Shown in pieces: positions 6,519-59,659 of a stretch of DNA of 59,659 nucleotides. The notes below the pieces were generated by a model that saw only the letters and a list, made by a program, of their open reading frames with translations, was not told the origin of the DNA and made no database searches. The DNA comes from Patescibacteria group bacterium (GTDB lineage Bacteria; Patescibacteriota; Minisyncoccia; Phycocordibacterales; PALSA-1337), in the NCBI GenBank assembly GCA_024654575.1, contig JANLHG010000020.1, positions 121,991-181,649 on the forward strand, in the 5' to 3' direction. How positions within the stretch are numbered: the first letter of the stretch is position 1; every line of letters begins with the position of its first letter. Position numbers and translations under genes: made by a program.

Positions 6519-7808
6519 TTACCTCCTCGTCCATTCTTCCTCCTGTCTGACAAGCAAATCAGCTTTTTGTTCTGGATGAGCCATTATTTTTTCCACTGTT
6601 CTTTCCATTCGCATAGATTGAGAACCTTTTACTAAAATAAGGTCATCTTTTGAGATAATATTTACGAGATAATCACCAGCCGAACGTGAATCATCAAAAG
6701 AAAAAATATTTTTTGCATCCATTCCCGCTTTCATCGCTCCTTCTTTAATATATTGAGAACGAACACCAACAGTCAGAAGAATATCAGCGACAACAGCAAT
6801 TTCTTCCCCCGCTTTTTTGTGTTCTTCAATAGCAAACTTACCGAGCTCCATCATATCACCAACACAGATAATTTTTCTACCAGAAATATTAATTTCTTTA
6901 CAAACTTCAAGTGCTTGATGAAGGGCAATCGGAGAAGAATTATAAGTATCATCTATAATAATGGAATCATTTTTTCCTTCGACAAGAGTCATTCTGCCTT
7001 TTGGAGAAATATGTCCAGCAAAAGATTGACTGATATCTACCATATTTATATTTTGAGAAACACCAACAGCTACAGCTGATAAGATAGGATATAAATGTTG
7101 AAGACCGAGTGTACCGAAAATAGAAATGGGTACTGAATTACCTGAAATGTTTATTTTAAAATTCATTCCAATGGGTTTTTTATTTTCATATAGAATAATC
7201 GAATTAGAACCAATAATATCCGCACCATTATTAAAACCGAAAGTGATGACTCTACCTTTAAAACTTTTTTTGAAATTCATGACATCATCATCGTCGTAAT
7301 TCAAAACGAGAACCCCATCTTTTTTCAAAGATTTAACTAAATATTCTTTTTCCTTAATAAGATCTTCGCGAGATTTAAAAAACTCAATATGAACAGGTAC
7401 GGCACTAAAACGTGTGACTACAACAATATCAGATTTAATCCATTTTGCGATATTTTTAATATCATTTGGTCTATCTGCACCAATTTCTAATGCAAGCCAT
7501 TTAGGAAAATTATGACGAATAATCAAAAGCTCCAATCCATATAGAATGTTTTTAAACCAAAGAAGAATATTAGTCCAAGCATTTGGACAACCCAAAATCG
7601 TAAGTGGAACACCAATATCACTATTGAAACTTTTTTCACTTTTTCGGATAAAAAATGTTTTACTCAATAAAGTGTAAATAGCATCTTTAGTCGAAGTTTT
7701 ACCTACATTCCCAGTAACTGTAATAATTTTCGGTTTATACTTCCAAAGTATCGCTCTGGCTTCTAACTCAAGAATTTTTGTAATTATTTTTTTAAGTATA
7801 TGCTTCAT
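6519..7808 (-). CDS. murF: UDP-MurNAc-tripeptide:D-Ala-D-Ala ligase
   Basis: ITVTGNVGKTSTK, IIDDTYNSSP, GDMMELG, LVKGSQ. Confidence 0.93.
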   Translation of the reverse strand: MKHILKKIITKILELEARAILWKYKPKIITVTGNVGKTSTKDAIYTLLSKTFFIRKSEKSFNSDIGVPLTILGCPNAWTNILLWFKNILYGLELLIIRHNFPKWLALEIGADRPNDIKNIAKWIKSDIVVVTRFSAVPVHIEFFKSREDLIKEKEYLVKSLKKDGVLVLNYDDDDVMNFKKSFKGRVITFGFNNGADIIGSNSIILYENKKPIGMNFKINISGNSVPISIFGTLGLQHLYPILSAVAVGVSQNINMVDISQSFAGHISPKGRMTLVEGKNDSIIIDDTYNSSPIALHQALEVCKEINISGRKIICVGDMMELGKFAIEEHKKAGEEIAVVADILLTVGVRSQYIKEGAMKAGMDAKNIFSFDDSRSAGDYLVNIISKDDLILVKGSQSMRMERTVEKIMAHPEQKADLLVRQEEEWTRR

Positions 7809-51449: not shown

Positions 51450-52424
51450 ATGAACATTGTCAAAATTCGAAACAAGTCAGTTGGCCCAGGCCAACCGACC
51501 TACATTGTTGCCGAAATCGGCATCAACCACAACGGCTATCTCAGAATAGCAAAGGACCTCATTGATGTCGCCGTCAAAGCTGGTGCCGACGCAGTGAAGT
51601 TCCAAACAAGGAATGTGGATGTGGTATTCACAGAGGAGGAGCTTACAAGGCTCCGTCCCGTACCCAAAAACATTCTTGAAAACGCTATAACTCGTGGAGT
51701 ATTGCCAGATGAAGCCATTGAACGACTTCAATCGTCAGACTTCCGACAAAGCACAAACGGAGACCTCAAGCGACTGCTTGAGTTCTCTGATGAAGAGTAC
51801 GCAGAAATTAGCAGGTACTGCGAATGGAAAGGGATTGATTGGTTCACCTCCTGTTGGGACGCCGATTCGATTGACCGAATGGAGAAATTCAATCCTCCTT
51901 GTCACAAGATCGCTTCGGCCTGCAATGAAGATGATGAACTTATGCTTCGGGCACGTGCCACCGAAAAACCAATCATCCTCTCAACGGGAATGACGGATTT
52001 AGAAGGTGTCAAAACCGCCATTGAAATCATCGGAAAAGAGAATCTCGTCATTCTCCATTGTACGAGCGTCTATCCAAAAGGCGCCGAGTCAAATCTGGAC
52101 ATCTTGAAGCTCATTAACCTTCGAGGTATGGACACTCTTTCCGAAGAGTTCGGCGTTCCTGTTGGTTTTTCTAGTCACGACTCTGGAATTCAGCCAACCT
52201 ACGCATCGGTCGTTCGAGGCGCGGTGATGGTTGAAAAACACATCACGCTTGAGCGCGGAATGTGGGGTTCGGACCAGGGGTCTTCGGTTGAGTCTAGTAG
52301 TTTCATTCATCTCTGTGGAATGATACGACAAATTCCTTCGGTGTTAGGTGATGGAGAAATTGTCGTTTATCCAGCAGAAGAAGAAGTGTCGAATAAACTT
52401 CGGCGAGTGCGCCGAAAAAAATAG
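51450..52424 (+). CDS. neuB: NeuB-family nonulosonate synthase, no C-terminal SAF/AFP domain
   Basis: AEIGINHNG, DAVKFQ, LSTGM, LHCTSVYP, GFSSH, EKHITL. Confidence 0.92.
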   Translation: MNIVKIRNKSVGPGQPTYIVAEIGINHNGYLRIAKDLIDVAVKAGADAVKFQTRNVDVVFTEEELTRLRPVPKNILENAITRGVLPDEAIERLQSSDFRQSTNGDLKRLLEFSDEEYAEISRYCEWKGIDWFTSCWDADSIDRMEKFNPPCHKIASACNEDDELMLRARATEKPIILSTGMTDLEGVKTAIEIIGKENLVILHCTSVYPKGAESNLDILKLINLRGMDTLSEEFGVPVGFSSHDSGIQPTYASVVRGAVMVEKHITLERGMWGSDQGSSVESSSFIHLCGMIRQIPSVLGDGEIVVYPAEEEVSNKLRRVRRKK

Positions 52425-58054: not shown

Positions 58055-58858
58055 ATGAAAAAAACATTAGAAAAATTCCAACTTAATGGTGCAATAGCTA
58101 TTATCACAGGAGGTGCTGGTCTTTTAGGACAAAGTCATGCAGAAGCTATTCTTGATGGAGGTGGTAAAGTGGTGCTTTTAGATATAAACAAAGAAATGCT
58201 TGATAAAAAAGTCACTTTACTTAAAGAAACTTACGGAGAAAATATTTGGGGATTTGTTTGTGATATAACCAAAGAAATTGAAATTGAAAAAATAGTAGAA
58301 AAAATTGAAAAAGAAATAAGCCATATCGGAATTCTTATTAATAACGCTGCAAACAATCCAAAAATAGAAAATGGCAAAGCTAGTTTTTCTCACCTTGAAA
58401 ATTTTCCAATAGATATGTGGGAAAAAGATATTGCTGTTGGCCTCACTGGTGCATATCTTATGAGTAAAATAGTAGGGCCAAGAATGGCAAAAAATGGTAA
58501 GGGAGTAATTTTGAATATTGCTTCTGATTTGGGAATCATTGCTCCAGACCAAAGATTATACGGAGATGCAGTAAAGCCCGTCACTTATTCCGTAGTTAAA
58601 CACGGACTGATAGGTCTTTCAAAATATTTAGCAACTTACTGGTCAGATAAAGGAGTTCGTTCAAATGCTGTGGCTTTCGGTGGTGTTTATAATAACCAAC
58701 CAGATGAATTTGTTTCCAAACTTTCTAAACTCATTCCTATGGGTAGAATGGCTACAATAGATGAATATAAGAGCATTGTGCTGTTTATGTGTTCCGATGC
58801 ATCATCATATATGACCGGCTCCACAGTAATTATAGATGGAGGAAGAACCTGCTGGTAA
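58055..58858 (+). CDS. SDR oxidoreductase (PtmA-like)
   Basis: TGGAGLLG, NNAA, SDLG, YSVVK (YxxxK), GGV, DGG. Confidence 0.92.
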   Translation: MKKTLEKFQLNGAIAIITGGAGLLGQSHAEAILDGGGKVVLLDINKEMLDKKVTLLKETYGENIWGFVCDITKEIEIEKIVEKIEKEISHIGILINNAANNPKIENGKASFSHLENFPIDMWEKDIAVGLTGAYLMSKIVGPRMAKNGKGVILNIASDLGIIAPDQRLYGDAVKPVTYSVVKHGLIGLSKYLATYWSDKGVRSNAVAFGGVYNNQPDEFVSKLSKLIPMGRMATIDEYKSIVLFMCSDASSYMTGSTVIIDGGRTCW

Positions 58859-58865
58859 TAATTTA

Positions 58866-58899
58866 ATAAAAAGAGCCCCCGCAAAAAATGCGGAGGCTC
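58866..58899 (-). terminator. Terminator of the GC-rich edge gene
   Basis: GAGCCTCCGCA-TTTTT-TGCGGGGGCTC then TTTTT on the minus strand. Confidence 0.75.
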
Positions 58900-58940
58900 A
58901 AGAAGTCAAGAGAGACAAGCCCTCAAGAGTTCAAGAATCA

Positions 58941-59657
58941 CTACTTCCTGGCAGCCGACAAGCCGATGCTGTCATGGCGGTAGTCGTCGCTCCAGCCGCC
59001 GATGAAGAGACCCTTGGCATCGAAGCCGCCGACGTGGACGCGGTGACCGTCCGAGCCGAGATCGACACAGCGAGCGTAGACCTTCTCGAGCAAACGTTCC
59101 TCAGTGGCGAGAAAGAGGCCGACCATGGTGTAAACCATTATCCGAGCAGTCGGCGTTTCCTCGTCTTTCGAGAGGAGTTCCTGCTGTTCGTTCCACGTCT
59201 TCGAGGTCGAGTTGGCGATAGGTTCCTTACGGACCAACTGCCAGCCGACTTCGCCCTTGTCCTTGGCAAACGCCTGCTTGTCATACCAGTCCTGTGAGTA
59301 AAACAGGGTCTGGTCGGACTGCTTCTTGACGATGCCACGGATGTCGAGGATCGACAGCGGGAACACGGCGACGAGAATGTGAGTGTCCTTGCAGGACTTC
59401 AGCACTTCCTCGCTGAACGGAACCTCGGACAAGTAGGCGAGCTGTTGCTTCGAATGGTTAACCCCGAAGTGTCTGATCGCTTCCTCGATACCAAAGTAGT
59501 TCGTGCCCATGATCTCGCGAGCGAGTTTCTGCGACGTCGACGGATCGTATCCGCCATTAGCCATGAATCGTGCGATGTTCGCCACGAACAGAGGGTCGGT
59601 GTTGATCCGAGTTGCAACTTCGTCGGCGTTCTCACCGACTGCAACCCAGAGACGTTG
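58941..59657 (-). CDS. 5'-truncated GC-rich gene; probable C-type-lectin-fold DGR target protein
   Basis: Frame stays open to the window edge (QRLWVAVGEN...); C-terminus HRVHVGGFDAKGLFIGGWSDDYRHDSIGLSAARK built mainly from NNC codons. Confidence 0.7.
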   Translation of the reverse strand, partial: QRLWVAVGENADEVATRINTDPLFVANIARFMANGGYDPSTSQKLAREIMGTNYFGIEEAIRHFGVNHSKQQLAYLSEVPFSEEVLKSCKDTHILVAVFPLSILDIRGIVKKQSDQTLFYSQDWYDKQAFAKDKGEVGWQLVRKEPIANSTSKTWNEQQELLSKDEETPTARIMVYTMVGLFLATEERLLEKVYARCVDLGSDGHRVHVGGFDAKGLFIGGWSDDYRHDSIGLSAARK

Positions 59658-59659
59658 GC

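Follow-up and report, generated by a model that had tools for sequence, protein, structure and literature searches.

A lone target gene of a diversity-generating retroelement at the end of a Patescibacteria contig, with a variable repeat very probably written by retrohoming

Close to the end of a 59,659-nt stretch of Patescibacteria DNA (contig JANLHG010000020.1, positions 121,991 to 181,649; hereafter the window, meaning the whole stretch that was analysed), AT-rich sequence gives way to a GC-rich gene whose last codons are dominated by NNC. An earlier note on this DNA had interpreted the gene as the probable target of a diversity-generating retroelement (DGR), i.e., as a gene with a variable repeat (VR) rewritten from a template repeat (TR), and had seen neither a TR nor a reverse transcriptase (RT) nearby. 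DGRs are, to our knowledge, the only prokaryotic system of targeted protein hypervariation; their prototype is that of Bordetella phage BPP-1 (mtd-avd-TR-brt). CPR bacteria are enriched in DGRs, and almost all of their targets are without known function. The locus raises two questions, namely whether the gene is a DGR target and, if so, from where its VR was written. To the first our answer is yes: with very little doubt, the gene is a DGR target and retrohoming produced its VR.

The target gene is encoded on the minus strand, which corrects the earlier note. Its frame, assigned as a partial CDS of a DGR variable (target) protein from the ORF, its homologues and the DGR cassettes of relatives, occupies 58941..59659, with a TAG stop codon at 58941-58943, and is still open at 59659 after 238 codons. 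Full-length relatives measure ~255 aa; hence ~17 N-terminal codons lie outside the window and the 3′ 94% of the gene lies inside it. In the database, this protein is recorded as precisely these 238 aa, on a contig of 181,649 bp, which makes it probable that the source contig breaks off within the gene. The compositional shift that had been described by eye is real: in successive 100-nt segments the G+C fraction rises from 0.20-0.42 before ~58900 to 0.53-0.67 beyond. The GC3 of the gene is 0.76 (0.74 outside the VR), as against 0.15-0.22 in five neighbouring genes. The NNC-rich tail is equally evident, in that C is the third base of 67% of the final 45 codons and A of none, compared with 39% and 11%, respectively, in the remainder of the gene. 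The encoded peptide terminates in ...GHRVHVGGFDAKGLFIGGWSDDYRHDSIGLSAARK, that is, in GLSAARK. We also considered, and rejected, a plus-strand ORF at 58836-59297 (153 aa) as an antisense gene. Similarly long antisense ORFs are present in relatives, but their openness is not equally kept; A-ending codons are rare in the target gene, and antisense stop codons are therefore rare too, so that this frame is a by-product of high GC3.

On the other side of the composition boundary, a host SDR gene on the opposite strand converges on the terminator of the target gene, with its stop codon 14 nt away. The genes beside the target encode enzymes of sugar-modification type. They are compatible with the surface-glycan cluster that the earlier note had placed next to the target; a functional link between the two was not found. 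Within this sugar cluster, one gene at 51450-52424 has a G+C content of 0.45-0.48, clearly above that of its surroundings, and by eye resembles a NeuB-type nonulosonic-acid synthase; it is followed by genes that, again by eye, are cytidylyltransferase-like and aminotransferase-like.

Sequence searches with the target protein returned 874 homologues of ~255 aa, the best with 84% identity, and a search seeded from a more distant subfamily (275-290 aa) added 273 more. In total the family exceeds 1,100 members, and nearly all of them come from Patescibacteria/CPR; the named close relatives belong to Candidatus Paceibacterota, a CPR lineage, in keeping with the enrichment of DGRs in CPR to which the earlier note had referred. 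Among GTDB genomes, taken one per species, 79 loci were found in 79 assemblies, nearly all of them Patescibacteria, together with three from Methanothrix/Methanotrichaceae. These archaeal relatives share ~49-56% identity with the target (L073 9914-10600; L052; L080); one of them, itself of host-like G+C, lies on a 2.2-Mb contig, adjoins aIF2-alpha and PAC2 genes and has no RT nearby. They suggest transfer between CPR bacteria and archaea. Comparison of the target with Pfam, NCBIfam, PDB (by sequence and profile), PHROGs and PADLOC yielded no meaningful match, none of the 46 family members scanned matched a Pfam family, and no source supplied an informative name. No relative of the target was found in IMG/VR, and inspection of the alignment by eye revealed no N-terminal hydrophobic stretch in the full-length relatives.

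The variability of this family is sharply localised. In an alignment of 46 homologues, the 11 positions of highest entropy (2.7-3.2 bits) all fall within residues 205-230, namely at residues 205, 208, 211, 215, 218, 220, 221, 223, 226, 228 and 230, amid a near-invariant scaffold. The resulting C-terminal pattern is G-x-RV-x-VG-x-FDA-x-GL-x-V-xx-W-x-D-xx-R-x-D-xx-GLSAARK. In the TRs of two relatives, L007 and L090, ten of these columns are AAY (Asn) codons and one (215) is AAG (Lys).

These TRs were recovered by scanning each locus with the last 110 nt of the gene as query, mismatches at adenines of the candidate copy being counted apart from all others. About 26 loci contain such a copy on the same strand, 340-500 nt downstream of the target (~1.4 kb in three loci, where an insert is present). 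VR and TR differ there at 6-22 sites per 110 nt in total, with only 0-3 mismatches outside adenines. Where the genes vary, the TR copies read AAC or AAT; that of L007 translates as LDSDGNRVNVGNFDAKGLNVNNWNDDNRNDNIGVSAAR. Tblastn searches located an RT and an avd gene in these relatives, in the order target, TR, avd (minus strand), RT (plus strand). The Avd protein contains the Pfam bAvd domain, and the RT, of 349 aa, contains the DGR motif IGNLTSQ together with YTDD. Of the 60 GTDB loci that were informative, i.e., that retain at least 2.5 kb of sequence downstream of the target, 24 have cassette parts after the target and 36 are lone. A search in the opposite direction, starting from RTs and looking for cassettes without an adjoining target, found the target in place in all four cassettes examined.

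Pairs of near-identical elements differ almost only in the VR, which indicates that this DGR system is active. Two loci from different samples with an identical RT protein (L090 and L091) differ at 12 positions in 4,050 nt, and all 12 are within 70 nt of VR, each VR departing from the common TR at adenines only; in a second pair (L093 and L094), 19 of 25 mismatches are inside the VR. Adenine-specific VR/TR mismatches combined with VR-limited strain differences are the standard signature of mutagenic retrohoming (mechanism: PMC5758913). Other cassettes are in decay (L005, L013, L021 and L036). The TR of L013 has lost adenines. In L005 (10001-12218), the end of the gene is a hybrid, VR-like in one half and TR-like in the other (…NNWNDDNRNDN…); its stop codon is gone and avd follows immediately, and the RT is frameshifted and split into three frames. 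Either a decaying cassette has here undergone a VR-TR deletion, or the assembly has collapsed at this locus. The Rfam LOOT RNA (RF03000, 69-80 bits) adjoins four of the 11 cassette-bearing loci scanned, all on the minus strand (L007 9979-10106; L009 9497-9618; L011 9496-9628; L014 9340-9471). At three of these loci it precedes the target by ~330-360 nt, and at the fourth it comes just past the RT; none was found in the window.

In the window gene, gapless alignment to the TRs of relatives places the VR at 58947..59062 of the minus strand, a segment of 116 nt that encodes LGSDGHRVHVGGFDAKGLFIGGWSDDYRHDSIGLSAAR, constitutes the last 38 codons of the gene and spans hypervariable residues 205-230. 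The TRs used in this comparison are heterologous, i.e., they come from other genomes. Relative to the L007 TR, the window VR is mismatched at 15 of 30 adenine sites and at 4 of 86 other sites (Fisher p=1e-7); relative to that of L090, at 16 of 32 and 3 of 84 (p=2e-8). With L011 included, the figures are 15-16 of 30-32 adenines and 3-8 of 84-86 other sites, with p between 1e-5 and 2e-8. None of the 11 Asn codons in the template is preserved (they have become H, H, G, F, G, G, S, Y, H, S etc.), and every one is still NNY. The peptide that had been predicted for the template from the window sequence, NRVNVGNFDAKGLNINNWNDDNRNDNIGLSAARK, agrees in 31 of 34 residues with the translated L007 TR, NRVNVGNFDAKGLNVNNWNDDNRNDNIGVSAARQ.

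The elements next to the VR are also in place. Its 3′ end is an invariant G+C-rich segment of 21 nt, ATCGGCTTGTCGGCTGCCAGG (58947..58967, minus strand), at which the VR/TR alignments of relatives stop. Past this segment VR and TR diverge, the VR continuing as AAG TAG TGATTC and the TRs as CAGTCATA; the TR-specific tail is GCCAGGCAGTCATA, as opposed to GCCAGGAAGTAG after the VR. By its likeness to described DGRs, this segment may act as the initiation-of-mutagenic-homing (IMH) site (PMC5758913). It is followed by a 3′ UTR with four CTTGA motifs and one CTTGT motif (58898..58937, minus strand), which is conserved at the nucleotide level in nine loci, lone and cassette-linked. A small hairpin inside this UTR, GAGGG-CTTGT-CTCTC (58910-58924, minus strand), is the putative counterpart of the hairpin that described DGRs carry 3′ of the VR. 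The gene ends in an intrinsic terminator, GAGCCTCCGC-ATTTTTT-GCGGGGGCTC plus a T run (58865..58899, minus strand), recovered both by a terminator scan and by a consensus fold in which 13 pairs are retained across nine loci. The block of homology with relatives stops at this T run, beyond which the flanks of lone loci diverge. At the level of sequence, the IMH-like end and the downstream inverted repeats are conserved (58947-58967, 58910-58924 and 58873-58899), and the window copy has lost neither its ORF and scaffold residues nor its IMH-like end, 3′ hairpin or terminator.

The rest of the cassette is missing from the window. A sliding scan of both strands of the 59.6 kb that tolerated changes at A returned only the VR itself, and tblastn with the RT and Avd of a relative returned nothing, as the earlier note had stated for RT and TR. 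With no TR, avd or RT, and with the SDR gene converging on the terminator, the window copy is a lone target. Exact-pattern scans of metagenome contigs, for the SDR/terminator junction and for the VR itself, produced no matches, and an exact look-up of the protein fragment gave no record. Nor did a strain nearly identical to that of the window come to light.

Lone copies elsewhere in the family indicate that the VR can be rewritten from a distance. Their neighbours are housekeeping genes that vary from locus to locus, e.g., SMC and RNase R in L001, and ThrRS and DnaE in L006. L001 and L086 are syntenic lone loci; no cassette lies within 10 kb of either, and identity across the five flanking genes is 97.1-99.9%. 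Within 96 nt of VR, they differ at 22 positions, against a background of 5-13 per 500 nt, and ~19 of the 22 fall on sites that are A in the TR of a relative. Divergence returns to background right outside the VR, which retrohoming without a cis cassette explains better than recombination. The concentration of their differences at A-sites of the VR shows that rewriting in trans has reached lone copies. Four contigs, drawn from an NCBI assembly and three sequencing runs, were fetched for the lone protein P0046 (7 contigs carrying it were read), and its sequence, including the VR, is the same in all four, which suggests stasis. The single family locus found in each of the 79 GTDB assemblies implies that none of the lone-copy genomes shows a typical cassette at another place. 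The best 120 RT relatives, which share at least 60% identity with the L007 RT, include none on a contig of 181,649 bp, the length recorded for that of the window protein, and none on the contigs of L001 (562,216 bp) or L086 (137,668 bp). The more divergent lone copies have degenerate C-termini. One locus (L025 10001-11730) contains two tandem lone targets with a common 3′ end and 3′ UTR and differing VRs, and no RT or avd within 10 kb. The idea that lone copies are retrocopies of an mRNA was rejected; some of them, e.g., L006, contain the conserved promoter upstream of the leader.

Complete cassettes have a different setting. A large serine recombinase gene is found near 15 cassette loci and 3 lone loci, a terminase large subunit gene (terL) near 7 and none, and an N6/N4 methyltransferase gene near 9 and 1, respectively. 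In L090, terS and terL lie upstream of the cassette (terL matching phrog_38, E=3e-80) and a large serine recombinase lies downstream. Because these genes accompany the cassettes, we conclude that the cassettes usually ride on prophage-like elements; those with complete cassettes are L090 (2063-4604 and 18278-19597), L005, L007, L009, L011, L014, L019, L029, L088 and L093. The recombinase, terminase and methyltransferase genes of such elements are all absent from the window. A donor that is mobile and variably present, or that was lost in binning, may reconcile rewriting in trans with lone-copy genomes that are free of cassettes.

Two readings would remove the gene from the DGR targets altogether, and both are highly improbable. 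One is that it is a horizontally acquired GC-rich gene whose NNC tail is mere codon bias. The whole gene is indeed GC-rich, also outside the VR, and the family bears signs of horizontal spread; but hypervariability falls exactly on the codons that have adenines in the TR, relatives carry the cognate TR, avd and RT, and variation between strains is restricted to the VR, so that the VR/TR comparisons refute this reading. The other is an assembly chimera, in which a foreign GC-rich fragment was joined to the end of an AT-rich contig. The jump in composition does lie ~720 nt from the window end, on a contig that probably ends within the gene. Against such an artefact, the junction consists of the family's own conserved 3′ UTR and terminator, and the same GC-rich gene sits amid AT-rich housekeeping genes in independent assemblies from several samples, e.g., L001-L004 and L086; we give the chimera hardly any credence. 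The view of the gene as a DGR target is supported by the cassettes of relatives, with their adenine-specific VR/TR mismatches, and by near-identical elements that differ only in the VR.

The source of the VR is a more evenly balanced matter. The earlier note had left three options, namely a remote target, an RT upstream and an orphan. An upstream RT is the least likely of them, since every relative has its cassette on the downstream side of the target; the other two are both retained. With a modest degree of confidence, we favour a lone DGR target for which a cassette outside this locus supplied the VR in trans, either from another part of the genome or from a prophage-like mobile element of the population. 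The alternative, to which we assign a substantial if less than even probability, is an orphaned target, i.e., one that was diversified in the past, whose matching TR and RT were lost or never received, and whose VR is now frozen and subject to ordinary evolution. The absence of cassette parts from the window fits an orphan, as do the lack of a close RT on the contigs of the window, L001 and L086 among the best 120 RT relatives, the single family locus per GTDB genome, the constancy of P0046 in four contigs, the decay of cassettes in relatives and the degenerate C-termini of more divergent lone copies. Yet the VR-limited A-site differences between L001 and L086 require retrohoming without a cis cassette. 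Moreover, the window VR keeps every AAY-derived codon as NNY, with 3-4 non-A differences from heterologous TRs, and its recipient elements are intact. Finally, the RT comparison covers the best 120 matches, with contigs recorded per cluster, and metagenome-assembled genomes often come without their mobile elements. Whether the donor still serves the window copy is, in our estimate, an even call.

Under the favoured reading, diversification in trans would proceed as in the relatives. A TR encoding ...GNRVNVGNFDAKGLNVNNWNDDNRNDNIG(V/L)SAAR, as seen in relatives, would be transcribed for the window copy too, its donor cassette being located either at another site of the genome or on a prophage-like element that moves within the population. 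The DGR RT (IGNLTSQ, YTDD) and Avd would copy this TR and misincorporate opposite adenines, a step for which the relatives again provide the model. The cDNA would then replace the VR, anchored at its G+C-rich IMH-like end. As an outcome, rewriting would affect the 11 AAY codons for Asn, along with a small number of further codons that contain A, and the scaffold residues would be spared.

The composition and synonymous-site conservation of the target set it apart from its own cassette. In all 18 cassettes compared, the GC3 of the target exceeds that of its RT (0.38-0.88 vs 0.26-0.73); in L011, for example, it is 0.69, as against 0.26-0.29 for RT and avd. Between L001 and L006, identity at 4-fold sites is 0.79 in the target and 0.19-0.28 in housekeeping genes, which are saturated; among L007, L009 and L011, it is 0.69-0.86 in the target and 0.17-0.46 in RT and avd. 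When synonymous codons were shuffled within each sequence, codon identity dropped from 0.77 to 0.51, and the conservation of the target is therefore site-specific. Amino-acid identities of RT and target are only weakly correlated (r=0.21). The conserved block extends from the promoter through a 170-nt leader with a covarying hairpin, the gene and the 3′ UTR to the TR. Upstream of the target (L007 ~6985-7176; L006, L009-L013) is a conserved sigma-70-like promoter, TTGACA...TATACT, and then the leader of ~170 nt, with a long hairpin, GAGACGAGCTTT...AAAGCTCGTCTC, that shows compensatory changes in L012. For the window gene, this stretch would fall past the window end. No Rfam family matches the leader, which may be a cis-regulatory RNA. 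Possible causes of the GC richness and synonymous conservation are horizontal exchange of a module, constraint at the nucleotide level and GC-biased conversion. Depletion of A through mutagenesis by the RT was rejected as a cause of the GC richness, since 4-fold sites are poor in T as well as in A (C.43, G.29, T.17, A.11).

A broader proposal combines these features. Lone chromosomal copies would be host-resident recipients, rewritten in trans by cassettes of CPR elements that resemble temperate phages, so that a mobile element would diversify a gene of the cell that harbours it. The GC-rich target module would pass horizontally between genomes, or be kept unchanged in its nucleotide sequence, independently of RT and avd. 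The module here comprises promoter, structured leader, gene and 3′ UTR, with or without the TR. We regard this proposal as speculative and rather unlikely to hold in full.

The earlier note had also suggested a C-type-lectin (CLec) fold, and we predicted the structure of the protein. A first AlphaFold model, from a shallow alignment of 46 close sequences, was poor (pLDDT 55). A second, from 92 diverse sequences of both subfamilies, reached a pLDDT of 93.1 and a pTM of 0.87. The latter consists of a helical N-terminal part (~residues 1-90), followed by an alpha/beta region of ~145 residues whose last strands bear the VR. Foldseek comparison of the whole model with PDB and BFVD gave no match at E<=0.001. 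The top PDB matches are nearly all FGE-sulfatase or CLec-like proteins (EgtB, through its C-domain, FGE, pFGE, PvdO, CarF, SenA, OvsA and PorK), with TM-scores of 0.14-0.27; over all matches E is at least 0.05 and TM-scores are 0.14-0.29, none of them significant. The DGR protein TvpA (2y3c) is also among the matches, again not significantly (E=2, TM 0.14). Among the viral matches in BFVD, that of highest match probability is a phage 'sulfatase-modifying factor enzyme-like' protein; the Pfam FGE-sulfatase family does not match the target even at E=10. Although none of the top matches is significant, their nature suggests that the VR-bearing domain may adopt a C-type-lectin fold. The model would fit the suggestion of Roux et al. 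that uncharacterised target domains of CPR are new CLec variants (PMC8144416).

Comparison with known systems places the gene more precisely. As in BPP-1, the VR of the family is C-terminal and rich in AAY-derived codons, its end is G+C-rich and IMH-like, and it is followed by an inverted repeat (PMC5758913); the relatives have an Avd, an RT with [ILV]GxxxSQ, adenine-specific VR/TR differences and phage-associated cassettes. Unlike in BPP-1, the window copy is without a cassette, and the relatives have the order target-TR-avd(inverted)-RT rather than target-avd-TR-RT; the target, of ~255 aa, shows no detectable tail-fibre features, and neither its sequence nor its fold significantly matches a solved DGR protein. 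Adjacency of target and RT is not obligatory in DGRs (PMC5758913), and the Treponema DGR has up to seven non-adjacent targets according to Wu et al. (PMC5758913). The window copy resembles Treponema denticola TvpA and other remote-target DGRs in that the target is away from the RT and, on the favoured reading, would be served in trans; it departs from the Treponema case in that no donor was located for it. Wu et al. describe targets more than 100 kb from the RT for a different DGR lineage only and report none from the CPR set (PMC5758913).

The family also resembles the DGRs of CPR bacteria ('clade 2' of Roux 2021, PMC8144416; 'CPR set' of Wu 2018, PMC5758913), with which it shares the host group and the C-terminal VR. 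CPR targets are reported to be without a recognisable domain or transmembrane segment (PMC8144416; PMC5758913). By these published descriptions, the family resembles the CPR set of Wu 2018 (unclassified VR classes) in this respect as well. The window gene thus adds to a known group, that of the CPR DGR variable proteins, whose targets lack recognisable domains. Earlier pipelines required a VR beside an RT (PMC8144416), and lone copies like that of the window were therefore not catalogued.

The lone copy is the commonest form in which this family of more than 1,100 members occurs in genomes, and it is the form that RT-first surveys miss (PMC8144416). If prophage-borne cassettes serve lone copies in trans, then the reach of DGRs in CPR genomes is underestimated, and a route of gene diversification from phage to host becomes testable. 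If, instead, the lone copies are orphans, they would constitute a dated record of the domestication of DGR targets.
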